DNA of 57,493 nt, filler included, from Sphacelaria rigidula (Eukaryota): NCBI GenBank assembly GCA_964200075.2. It is 4 parts of 4 records of this genome, joined end to end, with 100 filler letters (N's around TTAATTAATTAA, not from the genome) between each part and the next. Parts side by side here need not be neighbours in the genome. Positions count along the whole stretch, not along the records: positions 1 to 14,300 come from CAXNAA020002328.1; 3 more parts are not named here. One strand, 5' to 3'. The notes beneath the pieces are model-generated. The model had not been told where the DNA came from and did not search any database. It worked only from the letters and a program-made list of their open reading frames with translations. Positions within the stretch are counted from its first letter, which is position 1. Each line of letters begins with the position of its first letter. Shown here piece after piece: positions 5,491-43,198 of the stretch. A program made the translations under genes and the position numbers.

Positions 5491-6311
5491 GTTGTTCCGG
5501 ATGATCACTGACTTTTATCAGCTTGTAATTTTTGAGAGGAATGCCCGCAGGCATACATTAGTAATATGAAATATATATGCATACGGGACGTAATGCCCGC
5601 GCGTATGCATTGAGATTCAGCCATTTCGTGTTTTCTCCGACACTTGTGCATGTATCGGATATAACACGACTATTGGAGTAACTGGCTTTCGAGGGTCACG
5701 TGAAGCGCTGTCGAGGAAAGAGGGCAGCTCTGTTCTATTTTCGGTTGTCACCTAGAACGAGATCGGAGCGGATTGGTAGTTCGAAAGCCCATCAGGTACC
5801 CACGAGTTCAGAGTGTTTTCCCCAAAGGTGTACAAATGTTTGTGAACACGGAACAACTTTCCCTAACGTCGTCAGGCATGCCGAAAGTGAAATGCAACCT
5901 TCTGATGCGTTGGCAGGTGTTGTGCAAGCCTGGATATCTGTGATTTGGCATGCCTCATCCTGCCAGGTCGCGTTTTCACTGTGAAGCATGATTTAGCGTT
6001 GGAATTTCGGCCAAGTGTTTCTGCAACACAGGCATTCACGTTTCTACTATACCGGTCCCATACCTGCCTCCAATGCGTACTACCGTAGTGTCGACGACGT
6101 CCTCACCCGCCGAATACCCTTGGACAGTAAGTTGGTATGGATCGGTGTGTATTGAGTGTCATCTTATAAATATTGGATGCAGGGGTCTCGTGCTCTTCTG
6201 AAGTATGCGCAGTAAATGCAAAGACATTGTTTCTTCAAACCAACTTGACACGTTTCCAGCTGTAGCTCACGAACAGCTTTCCGGCGTTTTTGCGATCGAG
6301 CTGCTGGCAGA

Positions 6312-8705
6312 GTGTGGTTCCCGAAGGAGGTTGACGCGAAGGGGGAGCTGACGGCCGACGTCACGACGATATATTGCTTCCACGAGGACTGCTCCACGGG
6401 GTCATCGTACGGTCTACAAGCCTACAAGCCGAAGTTGTACTTTCAGCACGCCAGGTCAGGAATGGTGGATGTGGTGAAGGAGAGATGCGGCGACAAGGGC
6501 TGTGTCAAGCGACCGTCGTATGGTATAGGTGGAAGCCAGACAGCGGAGTTCTGCTTCGAGCACGCTGGGGCGGGAATGATGGACGTGGTGAACAAGAGGT
6601 GCAGTAATGAGGGCTGTGTGAAGTACCCATCGCATGGTGTAGCAGGAAGCAAGAAGGCGGAGTTCTGCTTACAGCACGCCAGGACGGGAATGGTAGACGT
6701 GCTACACAAGAGGTGCGGCGACGAGGGCTGTCTCAAGCAACCGTCGTTTGGTGTATCAGGAAGCAAGAAGGCAGAGTTCTGCTCAAAGCACGCCAGGACC
6801 GGAATGGTAAATGTGGCGAAGAAGAGGTGTGGCGACGAGTGCTGTCTCAAGCAACCGTCATTTGGTGTGGCAGGAAGCAAGAAGGCGGAGTTCTGCTCAG
6901 AGCACGCCAGGGCGGGAATGGTAGACGTGGTGAAGAAGAGGTGCGGCGACGAGGGCTGTATCACGCGACCGTCGTATGGTGTAGTAGGAAGCAAGAAGGC
7001 GGAGTTCTGCTTTGAGCACGCCAAGGCGGGAATGGTGAATGTGAGGAAGACGAGATGCGGCGATGAGGGCTGTCTGAAGTGCCCGTCGTATGGTGGAGCA
7101 GGAAGTAAGAAGGCGGAGTTCTGCTTTGAGCACGCCAAGACAGGGATAATAAATGTGGCGAAGAAAAGGTGTGGCGACGAGGGCTGTCTGAAGTACCCAT
7201 CGCATGGTGTAGCAGAAAGCAAGAAGGCGGAGTTCTGCTCAAAGCACGCGAGGGCCGGAATGGTAAATGTGAGGAACAAGAGTTGCGGTATTGAGGGCTG
7301 TCTGAAGCAACCGTCATTTGGTGCGGCAGGAGACAAGAAGGCGGAGTTCTGCTCAGAGCACGCCAGGGCGGGAATGGTAAATGTGGTGAAGAAGAGGTGC
7401 GGCGACGAGGGCTGTGTCACGCGACCGTCGTATGGTGTAGTAGGAAGCAAAGAGGCGGAGTTCTGCTTTGAGCACGCCAGGGCGGGAATGGTGAACGTGA
7501 GGAACAAGAGTTGCGGCAATGAGGACTGTATCATGCGACCGTCTTTTGGTGTAGCGGGAAGCAAGAAGGCGGAGTTCTGCGCTAAGCACGCCAGGGCGGG
7601 AATGGTGAACGTGAAGAAGATGAGGTGTAGCGATGAGGGTTGTGTCACGCGACCGTCGTATGGTGTAGCAGGAAGCAAGAAGGCGGAGTTTTGCGCTGAG
7701 CACGCCAGGGAGGGAATGGTAAATGTGGCGAACAAGAGTTGTGGCGACGAGGGCTGTCTCAAGTTCCCATCATTTGGTGTAGAAGGAAACAAGAAGGCGG
7801 AGTTCTGCGCTAAGCACGCCAGGGCGGGAATGGTAAATGTGGTGAACAAGAGGTGCGGCGACGAGGGCTGTCTCAAGTCCCCATCATTTGGTGCAGCAGG
7901 AAGCAAGAAGGCCGAGTTCTGCGCTAAGCACACCAGGGCGGGAATGGTGAATGTGAAAAAGAGGTGCGGCGATGAGGGCCTCCTCAAGTACCCATCAGTT
8001 GATGCAGCAGGAAGAAAGAAGGCGGATCTCTGCTCAGAGCACACCAGTGGAGGAAGGGTTGGCGCAGAACGTGTTAATTTCGGCAAGAAGGGGCGCTCCG
8101 AGCTCGGTACCTCCGAGAAGCACAACCTCGTTGAGGCCCAGTTCTGTCGACAGCATGCTACTAGAGACAACGCAATTGCAGTTTGCGACACCCCAGAACT
8201 CAAGACCAGGGTGGCCACATCCGGCCGCAGCCCGACGGAGGATGGTGGAGGAAGAGTTGCTGACGTACGAGGAATGAAACGTGACCACGCAGCTTGCTTG
8301 GGCTCTGGTTCAAATGCCGTTGTCGGCACTCGCCGTAGTGTGTGCCCCAGTCCAGGGCGGGATGGTGCAACGCTACCGCTGCTCTCAGCACGGATACCCT
8401 CAGGGTTTGATGGCAAGGTGTCGTCAGAGGCAAGGGCAGTGGCAGGAATAAAGGTGGAGCCGGCCGTCCCTTCTTCAGCGCACTGTGGCACTTGGGCCAG
8501 AGGTTGTGAGGAACAGGCTTCCAACTCAAGTGGTACGGGAAATGTAGGTGGTGGTAGTAGCTCCAGTAGCAGCAGTAGCGGTGTAGGTACGAGGTGGCTC
8601 CATGAGTCGTCGGCAGTGGGGTCTTGGTGCCTTGGCGTGTTTGATAGTGTGCAAGCTGAAGAGGCTATGAATTCGAACGTAAAGTTGGAGTTCGGGGGTG
8701 TCTAA
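6312..8705 (+). CDS. EsV-1-7 cysteine-rich repeat protein (tandem C-x4-C-x16-C-x2-H putative zinc-binding repeats) with a Ser/Gly-rich C-terminal tail
   Basis: 797-codon uninterrupted frame. It has 13 canonical repeats of 38 aa (last one 37 aa), consensus KKRCGDEGCxxxPS(Y/F/H)GVAGSKKAEFCxxHARAGMV(N/D)V, plus degenerate flanking repeats. This matches the EsV-1-7 domain of Ectocarpus virus and brown algae (IMMEDIATE UPRIGHT family). The 5' end is uncertain: the frame opens at GTG 6312, the first ATG is at 6462, and an upstream exon is possible. Confidence 0.92.
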   Translation: MWFPKEVDAKGELTADVTTIYCFHEDCSTGSSYGLQAYKPKLYFQHARSGMVDVVKERCGDKGCVKRPSYGIGGSQTAEFCFEHAGAGMMDVVNKRCSNEGCVKYPSHGVAGSKKAEFCLQHARTGMVDVLHKRCGDEGCLKQPSFGVSGSKKAEFCSKHARTGMVNVAKKRCGDECCLKQPSFGVAGSKKAEFCSEHARAGMVDVVKKRCGDEGCITRPSYGVVGSKKAEFCFEHAKAGMVNVRKTRCGDEGCLKCPSYGGAGSKKAEFCFEHAKTGIINVAKKRCGDEGCLKYPSHGVAESKKAEFCSKHARAGMVNVRNKSCGIEGCLKQPSFGAAGDKKAEFCSEHARAGMVNVVKKRCGDEGCVTRPSYGVVGSKEAEFCFEHARAGMVNVRNKSCGNEDCIMRPSFGVAGSKKAEFCAKHARAGMVNVKKMRCSDEGCVTRPSYGVAGSKKAEFCAEHAREGMVNVANKSCGDEGCLKFPSFGVEGNKKAEFCAKHARAGMVNVVNKRCGDEGCLKSPSFGAAGSKKAEFCAKHTRAGMVNVKKRCGDEGLLKYPSVDAAGRKKADLCSEHTSGGRVGAERVNFGKKGRSELGTSEKHNLVEAQFCRQHATRDNAIAVCDTPELKTRVATSGRSPTEDGGGRVADVRGMKRDHAACLGSGSNAVVGTRRSVCPSPGRDGATLPLLSARIPSGFDGKVSSEARAVAGIKVEPAVPSSAHCGTWARGCEEQASNSSGTGNVGGGSSSSSSSSGVGTRWLHESSAVGSWCLGVFDSVQAEEAMNSNVKLEFGGV
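6477..8069 (+). repeat. Coding tandem repeat, 114-bp unit, ~14 copies
   Basis: AAGAAGGCGGAGTTCTGC and GGGAATGGT recur at 114-bp spacing. Confidence 0.95.
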
Positions 8706-14300: not shown

Positions 14301-14400
14301 NNNNNNNNNNNNNNNNNNNNNNNNNNNNNNNNNNNNNNNNNNNNTTAATTAATTAANNNNNNNNNNNNNNNNNNNNNNNNNNNNNNNNNNNNNNNNNNNN
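14301..14400. other. Artificial contig spacer N44-TTAATTAATTAA-N44
   Basis: 100-nt N run containing a palindromic linker with stops in all six frames. Confidence 0.98.
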
Positions 14401-16042: not shown

Positions 16043-16595
16043 GAAACACAGACCGGATATGGGCATGGAAGACGGGTGCTCACCATTTTTCTTTGCATTA
16101 AGCACAACACGACCCGGATATGGACATGGCAAGAAGAAGCTGACCATTTTTCTTCGCACTGCCAGAACACAGCCCGGGCATAGGCATGGAATGACGAACG
16201 AAGCTAACCATTTTTTCTCGGGACTGACCGGGACACAACCCAAATATAGACACGAAACACCGAAGCTAACCATTTTTTCCTTTGCATTGCCAGAACGCAG
16301 CCGGGATATAGACATGGTATAAAGAAGCTGATCATTTTTTCTTTACATTAACCAGACACAGCCCAGACATGGAGATGTAAAACAGAAGGTAACCATTTTT
16401 CTTTTTCATCACCAGAACACAGACCGGATACGTGTAGATGTGAAATAACGAAGCGACCTAATTTTTTTCTTTGCACTATAACCAGAACACAGTCCAGATA
16501 TAAACATTAAATTACGAAGCTACTCATTTTTCTTCATCAACCAAAACACAGCTCGGGTATGAGCATGAAATGACGGGACTAAGATTTCTTCATCT
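16043..16595 (+). repeat. Minisatellite, ~60-68-bp unit, ~9 diverged copies
   Basis: Unit approx CCAGAACACAGCCCGGATATAGACATG...GAAGCTAACCATTTTTTCTTTGCATTA repeated head to tail. Confidence 0.9.
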
Positions 16596-24541: not shown

Positions 24542-25281
24542 CTAATCATGCTTTTTCCTCGATATGTCATTCACGCCCCGAACAACCAGTCCACTCACCG
24601 TATAAATACCCCCCACAATCGCGCAAACACTGGTTACAAACTCCAACGCAGATTTCCGTGTCTCGGTGAACCGTACCATTACAGGCGTAAAATCGTACCC
24701 GAACTCCACCCCTAACCACTGCTGCGAGTGCGTCACAGCGCGCATTGCATCAATCTCCGTCAAGAATCCCACATTCGTCGAGTAGGTGTGACTTCTTGTC
24801 TCGCGGCCGTATATCGACATGTGTGATATCGGAACAATTTTCAAGGAGTACCGAACCTGTCCCGCCCCTTCTTTTGAAACAAACGCACTTTTCGCCAACG
24901 GATTTTGACCCGCCGAACCGAAACCTGCCCCCTTGCTCATGCCCACCGGAACACCAAAAGCCAAATCGTGAATTCTGTGACTAACGTTCCTCCCTGCGAC
25001 CCCCTCCGGGCCAGTACGTTTCTCGCCCTGCGTTATGCCCACAACACCGCCTACAGCCATAATCCTGGCTGGGTCGTGGTGCATCACGTGCACCCGAATG
25101 GAACCTTTGGCCCTGGCGACTTCCAAGGTACCGTCTAAGGTGCACCCCACTTGTGAACCTCTATCCTCTCCAGCAGCTTTGAACGGTAGAATCTCCATCT
25201 TGGATGGCAGTCGGTGCTCGACGGTTTTGATATCCAAAAAGCCGGTGTTTCCTCTCGGGTTGTCGGCGATAACTTCAAGGT
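24542..25281 (-). CDS. Terminal exon of an ER-Golgi intermediate compartment protein (Erv41/Erv46, ERGIC1/ERGIC3 family; COPII-coated ERV domain)
   Basis: Motifs GCTLDGTLEVARAKGSIRV, NVSHRIHDLAFG, NPL, YSLKIVP, GVEFGYDFTPVMVRFTETRKS, a TM segment (FVTSVCAIVGGIYTVSGLV) and C-terminal dilysine KKHD. Acceptor ACAG|AC at 25281 is phase-compatible with the upstream exon (CK-D-LEV). Confidence 0.92.
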
Positions 25282-26303
25282 CTGTCGATGTGTAGCAAGG
25301 GCCACAGGCGATTGATGGCGAGGGCAGGCGGTGGCGAGTACGGGTAACAGGGAAATGCAAACATGTGATCATTTCCGTGATGCTACGTGATAGTGGGCAA
25401 TACAGCCGGCGAAAGTATCGCGAAAACACACCTGTGCGGCGTACACAAGCCAGTATGCTGAGTCTACGGGCTGGTCCCACTGCCTGACCCAAAGAATGGT
25501 CTCCGCCGCAAGTAGGACGAATATCAGCAACAAGTAACGCACTGAGTAAGTTTTCTGCAATCGTGAAGCCAGCCTGGAGTGCACCGCACACTCTGATCGT
25601 TTGTCGAGGCACTTTCATTATTTTACATCATCCTGGGACACCAAATATCGCTGATTGCGGCCCTGGGTGGCAGTTTGGTTCAGATATCTGATACTTGCAG
25701 TTTGGTTCAAATATCTGATACTTGGATCCTTGTATGATTGCGCTGATGATGTTGGTGCGCGTGTAGCTTACATCAAGGCGAGAACAGCAGCGCCTGCTTC
25801 GGCTCCTCAATTGTTACCTTTCAAAAGTTCCGAGCAGAACAAACTATGGGGGGGGGGTAAATATGATGTACACGATTTCTGGCCCTTGGAAATGTACATA
25901 TCTTGCATTCTCGCTCGAGGTGCGAGAGTTCAAACCTGGGTTTACAGGAGCGGTGCAAAAATCGGTATTTTCAAAGGCCATCAGTACGATATTTTCCTCT
26001 CCCATTCCGGAATATGGGTGGATTTCCCTCCAACAAACTCAGTCAAATGGTCCAAACTCCGAGAACAGGAAGAAAGGAAACAAGTCCAGTGATGACCTCC
26101 GAATGGTTGAAACGCATCTTTCCTCAAATTTTCACGTCGTAGCTCTTCACACCGGGAGCGGAAAATCCAGGGTCAAGATTTCTTATCTCAGGTAGTAGGA
26201 CCAGCCTGTTACGTGGTACAGCAGCGGATAGCTTTCCCACCAACTTGTACGCACAAAAATAACGAGTAGCGTACGACTCAACAACGAAAGCTCAAGCTCT
26301 CAC

Positions 26304-28699: not shown

Positions 28700-28799
28700 N
28701 NNNNNNNNNNNNNNNNNNNNNNNNNNNNNNNNNNNNNNNNNNNTTAATTAATTAANNNNNNNNNNNNNNNNNNNNNNNNNNNNNNNNNNNNNNNNNNNN
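28700..28799. other. Artificial contig spacer N44-TTAATTAATTAA-N44
   Basis: Same 100-nt spacer as 14301-14400. Confidence 0.98.
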
Positions 28800-43098: not shown

Positions 43099-43198
43099 NN
43101 NNNNNNNNNNNNNNNNNNNNNNNNNNNNNNNNNNNNNNNNNNTTAATTAATTAANNNNNNNNNNNNNNNNNNNNNNNNNNNNNNNNNNNNNNNNNNNN
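43099..43198. other. Artificial contig spacer N44-TTAATTAATTAA-N44
   Basis: Same 100-nt spacer. Confidence 0.98.

Follow-up and report, generated by a model that had tools for sequence, protein, structure and literature searches.

The stretch of DNA analysed here (57,493 nucleotides including filler, referred to below as the window) comes from Sphacelaria rigidula (GenBank assembly GCA_964200075.2) and joins four parts of four records end to end. Its plus strand carries, at 6249-8705, a gene encoding a long tandem array of EsV-1-7 repeats (Pfam PF19114), which, judged on its sequence, is an intact and selectively maintained host gene and an ordinary member of a known family. The open frame runs stop to stop over 818 codons (6249-8705, +) and is taken as one large terminal coding exon, and frame translation places the TAA stop codon at 8703-8705 (+). 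The open reading frame (ORF) called with translation table 11 covers 6312-8705 (protein P0001), and the first in-frame ATG does not come before 6462, which is codon 51 of that ORF. In short-read contigs of the same organism (four runs, two studies), both edges of the array are matched without differences and no contig bridges the interior, so that the number of units depends on how the window itself was assembled. The contigs of all four runs break at 6309/6338, where contig depth steps from ~10 to 29-37, and a 'cag' at 6308-6310 precedes the frame. Given the lack of an ATG before 6462, this break and depth step, and the 'cag', a splice acceptor at 6308-6310 is possible, in which case the start codon would lie in an upstream exon. 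None of the runs listed as containing the array stretch is on record as RNA, which gives no evidence either way on transcription.

Tandem Repeats Finder reports a single array at 6445-8047 (period 114, 14.1 copies, 82% matches, zero indels, score 1804), and the EsV_1_7_cys model (PF19114) matches the array protein in 14 stretches with an E value of 2e-213 (690.3 bits, gathering cut-off 25). With a motif scan, these resolve 13 intact units at 6486-7964 (+), of 38 residues or 114 nucleotides each (37 residues in the 13th), which start at 6486 + 114k (k = 0..12) and all contain C1-x4-C6-x16-C23-x2-H26 and Met31. Unit alignment adds a degenerate unit at either end. The first (6372-6485, +) keeps C1, C6 and H26, has C23 replaced and is one residue shorter, and the last (7965-8075, +), preceded by a one-codon deletion, has C6 changed to Leu, G13 to D and M31 to R. 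All four residues of the C-x4-C-x16-C-x2-H motif are kept in 13 of the 15 units, each terminal unit being without one. A preliminary description of this DNA had noticed an array on a conserved scaffold, and this is borne out as one open frame of 13 intact and two degenerate 38-residue units. The triplets that it read after the second Cys (VKR, VKY, LKQ, LKQ, ITR, LKC, LKY, LKQ, VTR, IMR, VTR, LKF, LKS, LKY) and its linker variants are in the sequence exactly as listed. A six-frame motif scan of the whole window gave 13 matches, all inside the array gene, and none outside it. An antisense frame is open for 752 codons over the array (window 6443-8701, -), which we read as a by-product of the codon make-up of the repeats and not as a gene. 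The array is followed by a Ser/Gly-rich C-terminal tail (8076-8702, +), in which the Pfam scan found no family and the comparison of tails found a half-unit remnant, AQFCRQH, at 8136-8156.

A homologue search returned 443 proteins at E <=1e-5 (7999 candidates scored), the best of them from Sphacelaria rigidula (53-56% identity), followed by proteins of Ectocarpus, Pylaiella, Scytosiphon and Ascophyllum and many metagenome proteins; homologue-level counts below refer to the best 120 of the 443. The 208-residue tail has 58% identity, across 98% of its length, with that of P0003, a protein assigned to Sphacelaria rigidula, the same species name as the source of the stretch, and among proteins in the length range searched it is common to P0003 only. 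P0003 is the likely orthologue of the array protein. It begins MVNVRNKR, i.e., at Met31 of a unit, and in five Sphacelaria rigidula proteins (P0002, P0003, P0005, P0007 and P0010) the first unit begins at residue 9. These five gene models are probably cut at the 5' end, which would make their unit counts lower bounds.

According to the portions of the literature consulted, the EsV-1-7 family is viral in origin and includes the Ectocarpus developmental regulator IMMEDIATE UPRIGHT (IMM) (10.1101/2024.02.19.579948, 10.64898/2026.04.27.720984, PMC12993054, PMC7457493), is expanded in brown algae and has been proposed as a new zinc-finger class (10.1101/2024.02.19.579948). With 2018 proteins in 31 genomes, EsV-1-7 genes form the largest orthogroup and are among the largest brown-algal expansions (10.1101/2024.02.19.579948, 10.64898/2026.04.27.720984). 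IMM itself has a unique N-terminal domain. The window array has the tandem C-x4-C-x16-C-x2-H-x12 motif of the EsV-1-7 protein and of PF19114. It differs from the best 120 homologues in its 15 domain hits, against 12 in the next-highest of them, and from the viral proteins in that its gene has a tail of its own, common to Sphacelaria P0003 only, in place of their conserved C-terminal domain.

Two features of the locus, namely the lack of an ATG before codon 51 of the ORF and the degeneration of both terminal units, would suit a decaying or non-functional repeat, whether a pseudogene, a transposon remnant or a viral insert. However, 818 codons remain open, all 13 inner units keep the four putative ligands in codons that carry synonymous changes, and the tail is conserved in P0003. 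Furthermore, a COPII/ERV host gene lies at 24542-25627, on another joined part of the stretch. Among units, the mean pairwise nonsynonymous divergence (dN) is 0.171 and the synonymous divergence (dS) is 0.414 (dN/dS 0.41), and the codons of the invariant Cys, Pro and Ser differ among units synonymously only. Because of this synonymous-only change and the low dN relative to dS, the units are best described as old copies under purifying selection, and we regard decay as extremely improbable.

Free positions on a constrained scaffold

In the 13 intact units, 12 positions are invariant (C1, C6, P10, S11, G13, A20, E21, F22, C23, H26, G30 and V34) and the other 26 of 38 vary. Entropy is highest at position 9 (2.29 bits; five R, three Q, two Y, and one each of C, F and S), followed by positions 35 (2.20 bits) and 24 (1.85 bits) and then by 15, 12 and 7, and the three highest together contribute 20% of the entropy summed over the unit. 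The position-9 codons (6510-7880, +, at 6510-6512 + 114k, k = 0..12) are CGA in five units, CAA in three, TAC in two, and TGC, TTC and TCC in one each. The codons of positions 24 and 35 lie at 6555-6557 + 114k and 6588-6590 + 114k (+), respectively. Position 24, one of the two residues that separate Cys23 from His26, is F, S, A or L; it ranks third in variability and was absent from the preliminary description.

Site rates were estimated by fixed-effects likelihood under the GY94 model on an IQ-TREE unit tree, with the synonymous rate fixed from the global fit. The global ratio of nonsynonymous to synonymous rates (omega) of the window array is 0.55, and site omega reaches 2.7-4.5 at position 9 (p 0.004-0.055 against omega = 1), 2.5-9.4 at position 24 (p 1e-5 to 0.17) and 3.6-5.6 at position 35 (p 0.002 or less), where the ranges come from varied codon frequencies and half-unit trees and cover four of the five model/tree settings. 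These estimates above 1 are in agreement with the earlier proposal of a constrained scaffold with a few free positions.

The same contrast recurs in other arrays. Searches for related loci with a protein or unit alignment gave one locus per scan, and a degenerate DNA pattern gave 120 giant-virus contig stretches; the fetched loci hold 128 unit-bearing ORFs. The DNA-level set comprises 22 giant-virus/metagenome arrays with 162 units, each array having at least six usable units and sharing no more than 30% of its units with another kept array (106 ORFs were dropped). Tested jointly over these 22 independent arrays, 35 positions have an omega of 0.43 or less (p below 2e-4). Three positions depart from this, namely 9 (1.49, p 0.078 against 1), 11 (1.49, p 0.13) and 36 (0.90, p 0.9). 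We also made a tree-free count of the arrays whose proportion of nonsynonymous differences (pN) at a position exceeds the synonymous proportion of the whole array (pS), using all 22 arrays and, separately, the 16 with pS below 0.55. Position 9 exceeds pS in 17/22 and 15/16 arrays, position 11 in 15/22 and 13/16, position 36 in 12/22 and 12/16, and position 24 in 12/22 and 10/16, while positions 25, 29 and 35 are near 1 and the remaining positions lie below.

Protein-level comparisons give a similar map. C1, C6, C23, H26 and M31 are almost invariant in the 611 units of the best 120 homologues. Mean within-array entropy in 80 other arrays of at least five units is 1.78 bits at position 9, 1.62 at 36, 1.58 at 35, 1.44 at 11 and 1.41 at 7, and in 21 of these arrays position 9 has the highest entropy. 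Among 78 pairs of near-identical units (at most six differences), 39% of the differences fall at positions 36, 9, 35 and 11. On these comparisons position 9 is a family-wide hot spot, and the hypervariability first noticed in the third triplet residue is replicated (joint omega 1.49 against 0.43 or less at 35 positions; 17 of 22 arrays). The other hot spots are less uniform: positions 24 and 35 are hotter in the window array than in most arrays, and position 11, which is hot in viral arrays, is a fixed Ser in the window array.

Several observations count against reading the hot spots as positively selected or as specifying a target. Values of omega above 1 are insecure in the window array, as p is 0.055 at position 9 with uniform codon frequencies and 0.17 at position 24 on a half-unit tree, and also in the joint set, where the p value against 1 for the omega of 1.49 at position 9 is no lower than 0.078. 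Omega inflates to 9-32 once the hot-spot sites are left out of the tree, and therefore tree conflict arising from exchange between units, which the site tests do not model, can strongly distort the result. Positions 24 and 35 were not fast in the first two other arrays checked (L002 and L003). Finally, the position-9 string reads HSHSFH in the likely orthologue P0003 against GRYQQRCYQRRRFSY in the window array, in a register that is uncertain because the P0003 model probably starts inside a unit; this mismatch fits fast turnover or a lack of constraint, not a conserved target. We read the hot spots of the window array as changing at or above the neutral rate, with positive selection at positions 35 and 9 likely but not secure. 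Of the rate test suggested earlier, the part that stands is a small number of sites at or above neutrality on a constrained scaffold, and the part that does not is a secure omega above 1 (joint p 0.078 at position 9).

The preliminary description had also proposed that position 9 partly covaries with position 12, and this holds within the window array only. There, Q9 goes with F12 in 3/3 units, Y9 with H12 in 2/2 intact units and R9 with Y12 in 4/5, and the link is the strongest of 300 variable-position pairs (119 of 20000 shuffles reach it), although it would not survive correction for 300 pairs. Family-wide it ranks 74th of 703 pairs, with R9 beside F 93 times and beside Y 71 times, and Q9 beside F 73 times and beside Y 59 times. 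Shared descent alone finds no support as the source of the link, same-state units being no closer to each other outside codons 7-12 (0.843 against 0.833; 2775 of 10000 shuffles). The link is likely due to the 9-nucleotide distance between the two positions and the exchange of short segments between units.

An explanation in which the hot spots carry no information would see in them neutral drift of surface or linker residues, on an array that binds a polyanion or has a structural role. It would account for joint omega values at positions 9, 11 and 36 (1.49, 1.49 and 0.90) that do not differ significantly from 1, for a position-9 string that is not kept in the likely orthologue, and for a 9-12 link that is absent family-wide and spans only 9 nucleotides, so that linkage can explain it. 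It does not sit easily with the excess of pN over pS at position 9 in 15 of 16 unsaturated arrays (one-sided binomial about 0.0003), with site omega of 2.7-5.6 at positions 9 and 35 in the window array, or with the bias of position-9 residues, which in viral units are Q in 25%, R in 24% and I in 17%. We consider neutral drift unlikely, and favour hot spots that bear on what the array contacts.

Viral architecture and predicted fold

In viral ORFs the array is N-terminal, with 1-15 units, and stands ahead of a conserved C-terminal domain. Indeed, 93 of the 95 viral tails of at least 120 residues form one cluster, and the window tail lies outside it. The domain, of ~190 residues, is found in loci L004-L123 (e.g., L099:1186-1767 and L078:6792-7994) and has four invariant Cys followed by invariant D202, R213, D215, E228, D230, E231, H234, R245, R262, N264, P265 and D266; P214 and Q233 are nearly invariant, giving the motif R-P-D...E-x-D-E-x-Q-H...R-x-N-P-D. 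Pfam has no model for the viral domain. Its relatives number 1852 proteins at E <=0.001, some of them stand-alone, and PF19114 is present in 105 of the best 120 and absent from 15.

The viral domain appears weakly nuclease-like, of the PD-(D/E)xK type. In an hhalign comparison with Escherichia coli YcjD (DUF559), the PD and E-x-D-x-x-Q-H motifs line up (E 0.026), and the name Endonuclease is carried by four array-bearing BFVD proteins, as given in their source records, and, through automatic naming, by one ESM Atlas cluster. Against this assignment, the hhalign probability is 1.9%, and the five PD-(D/E)xK matches among 79 tails (two to MTES_1575, two to Hjc and one to DUF559) have E values of 0.006-0.06, below the curated cut-offs. 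A profile search of the PDB with the viral domain found no relative, giving only an A20-type zinc finger at E 0.1, and an NCBIfam scan of 10 viral tails gave nothing meaningful. In combining an array with a PD...E-x-D-E-x-Q-H domain, the viral relatives resemble nucleases and transposases aimed by a separate DNA-binding module (homing endonucleases and PD-(D/E)xK enzymes of the Vsr/DUF559/MTES_1575 type), from which they differ in that their nuclease identity is weakly supported and that the algal gene has no such domain.

Other domains occur next to EsV-1-7 units. The homologue P0038 contains two helicase-associated (HA) domains, and the Ectocarpus Tc1/Mariner transposase TcMar-2_Ec32 is described, in the part of the report consulted, with an N-terminal EsV-1-7 domain (PMC12477816). 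An ELO fusion in P0076 was set aside, since the gene model there may be merged. Matches of EsV-1-7 units to the first 13 profile positions of Zf_WRKY19 (PF24906; C-x3-G-C-x-K-x-[PA]...) occur in 4 of 78 homologues; Zf_WRKY19 repeats have a shorter period, and the window protein has no match to them at E 0.01 or better. In one viral locus (L024:9130-10359), HGGGKRC-type units, which are Zf_WRKY19-like with a period of ~25 residues, lie between EsV-1-7 units and the viral C-terminal domain. These cases hint that the two kinds of repeat may be related or interchangeable, which we note as a lead.

An AlphaFold2 model of six units, built with 116 homologues as the alignment, reaches a mean predicted local distance difference test (pLDDT) score of 94.2 and a predicted template modelling (pTM) score of 0.68, and a two-unit model reaches a pLDDT of 88.6. 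The six-unit model, a high-confidence prediction, has consecutive units packed into a single regular body. In both models there are short strands, at unit positions 12-14 and 31-33, and long helices are absent. The best BFVD match to the six-unit model is EsV-1-7 of Ectocarpus siliculosus virus 1 (Q8QNQ2; 53% identity, E 3.6e-27, TM score 0.69, root-mean-square deviation 5.5 over 227 columns), both structures being predictions. Searched by sequence, the PDB gave nothing at E 1 or better for the array protein. Searched by fold, it gave no solved match, the best being Foldseek E 1.1 and VIA Z 2.3 (IDOL RING) for six units and E 3.9 and Z 2.2 for two, and the weak rows are all zinc modules. The fold therefore gives no hint of function, and no fold class is assigned. 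Within the unit, K8, P10 and F/Y12, which are conserved, are interleaved with the variable positions 7, 9 and 11, an arrangement that would suit an extended segment exposed on one side.

When the PDB was searched with the unit profile, the sole match was to 12 residues of plastocyanin (1byo, E 0.6), and F-C-x-x-H-A-x-A-G-M-V (unit positions 22-33, e.g., 6549-6584) resembles the plastocyanin copper-ligand loop C-x2-H-x4-M. Met31 is as conserved as the four putative zinc ligands (565 of 611 homologue units and 99% of 398 viral units). It is probably a core residue and the plastocyanin likeness a matter of chance, and it may instead be a fifth ligand or bind another metal.

What the array may bind

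The window array is basic, as had been proposed, with an isoelectric point of 9.16, 98 K+R against 61 D+E and a charge of about +2.6 per unit. The median charge in 94 arrays, which were picked as relatives of a basic query, is +2.6 per unit, and none of the 94 is at or below 0. Because the arrays are basic and because they are fused to nuclease-like, HA and transposase domains, nucleic-acid binding, probably to DNA, is plausible and is our best guess, with the chances about evenly balanced. Presumably, one zinc ion would be held per unit through C1, C6, C23 and H26, as their conservation suggests, and the basic array would bind nucleic acid, most likely DNA, with conserved Lys and Arg contacting the backbone and the fast positions making unit-specific contacts. 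In viruses the array could then aim the PD-(D/E)xK-like nuclease domain, and in the Ectocarpus Tc1/Mariner element it could aim the transposase. Algal genes, including the window gene, may have retained the array but no enzyme, and their products would then serve in sequence-directed binding or regulation.

Some of the evidence weighs against nucleic-acid binding: the window gene itself is without the viral nuclease-like domain, and the portions of the literature on EsV-1-7 proteins consulted report neither binding, zinc content nor localisation. The array might instead be a protein-protein scaffold of zinc modules, as are LIM, B-box and RING-like domains, in which the rapidly changing positions would adjust which partner is bound or help to evade one. 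The sole, weak structural neighbours are indeed mostly protein-binding zinc modules (IDOL RING with Z 2.3 and 2.2, B-box, LIM and PZP), rapid evolution is compatible with host-virus conflict, and the part of the source consulted on the Ectocarpus family states that it carries no additional Pfam domain (10.64898/2026.04.27.720984). However, none of these structural matches is significant, the arrays are uniformly basic, and they precede nuclease-like, transposase and HA domains, which is the usual setting of DNA-binding modules. A role as protein scaffold seems to us unlikely, and nucleic-acid binding is preferred.

If the array does bind DNA, the manner of reading can be compared with two known systems. 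TALE repeats are helical and metal-free, 34 residues long and near-identical save for two residues. The EsV-1-7 array is like them in its tandem organization, in its position-specific variation and in its predicted rigid superstructure, with units of 38 residues against 34, and unlike them in its 82% nucleotide matches and in variation that is spread over 26 of 38 positions. C2H2 zinc fingers are defined by C-x2-4-C-x12-H-x3-5-H and a beta-beta-alpha fold, and in C2H2 arrays such as those of KRAB-ZFP proteins and PRDM9, which are basic, few positions per unit vary and turnover between species is fast. The likeness here lies in constrained, metal-bound mini-domains (putatively so in the window array) with a few variable positions per unit in a basic array. 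The differences are that window units are CCCH (C-x4-C-x16-C-x2-H), have no C2H2 Pfam match and show no helix of four or more residues in either model, and that they vary next to Pro10, within the Cys23-His26 interval and in the linker.

The strictest form of the idea, a TALE-like code in which each unit reads one base or a fixed word through one or two residues, so that targets could be predicted from the position-9 string, would draw on position 9 being a consistent hot spot, on Q, R and I making up two thirds of viral position 9, on the 1-15 units ahead of one conserved domain and on the rigid packing suggested by the model. The distribution of variation speaks against it, as 26 of 38 positions vary and the top three account for 20% of the entropy, and on these numbers the strict analogy to TALE or PRDM9 drawn in the preliminary description is not supported. 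Nor is a small recognition alphabet, since 398 distinct viral units contain 100 distinct (9,11) pairs, the commonest at 5.8%, and 223 (9,11,36) triplets. Furthermore, there is no family-wide coupling of positions 9 and 12, and the set of hot spots differs among arrays. We therefore regard the strict code as highly unlikely, and any simple per-unit code as unproven and rather improbable. Recognition of a C2H2-like kind, with several residues per unit acting in many combinations, is more likely than a TALE-like one-residue code.

Joined into one reading, these elements would make EsV-1-7 arrays a further natural class of repeat-built, sequence-reading DNA binders, in which 1-15 units aim the viral nuclease, brown algae have domesticated the array many times as regulators, including IMM, and residues 9, 11 and 36 (with 24 and 35) set the bases. 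Taken as a whole this reading is speculative, and we hold it to be unlikely in its complete form. If it were true, the viral combination of array and PD-(D/E)xK domain would amount to a naturally occurring 'zinc-finger nuclease', to which more than 1800 proteins in public data are related, and its targets could in time be predicted and re-programmed from residues 9, 11 and 36 (with 24 and 35). Reading of DNA by the array would also account for the rise of a regulator family from a virus-derived domain in an independent multicellular lineage, and could provide a new programmable binder. If the array does not read DNA, the hot spots would still be the first surface to target by mutation.

What is new here is, first, a map that sets the free positions (9, 11 and 36, and to a lesser degree 24 and 35) apart from a constrained scaffold and that recurs in 22 independent arrays; second, the finding that viral proteins usually have, behind the array, a conserved nuclease-like domain for which Pfam has no model; and third, a confident predicted model in which the units pack as one body. 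The portions of the literature on EsV-1-7 and PF19114 consulted, a scope that includes neither supplements nor Macaisne 2017, mention neither hot-spot positions nor a ligand, nor the combination of array and nuclease. The gene itself is an ordinary member of its family, and the new leads are the pattern of hot spots and the architecture of the viral proteins.

Surroundings of the array gene

Long ORFs are few in the window (25 of at least 150 residues in 57 kb). A Pfam scan of eight window ORFs gave one family match, to the COPII-coated ERV (ER vesicle transporter) domain (E 2.5e-25), in an exon-sized ORF at 24542-25627 (-), and seven were without a family. This ORF lies on another joined part of the stretch than the array, and such parts need not be genomic neighbours. 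Given the scarcity of long ORFs and the presence of this vesicle-transport gene, the window DNA looks host-like. Pfam hits to DUF1490, Phe_ZIP, TnpV, Imm12, RNA_lig_T4_1 and similar families had no passing stretches and were discarded as summed repeat noise. The runs of N (with pairs of 44 bases) at 14301-14400, 28700-28799 and 43099-43198, ~14.4 kb apart, are not biological gaps. A 61-bp tandem repeat (7.8 copies, 68% matches) lies at window 16045-16531, with a strong AT skew around it.

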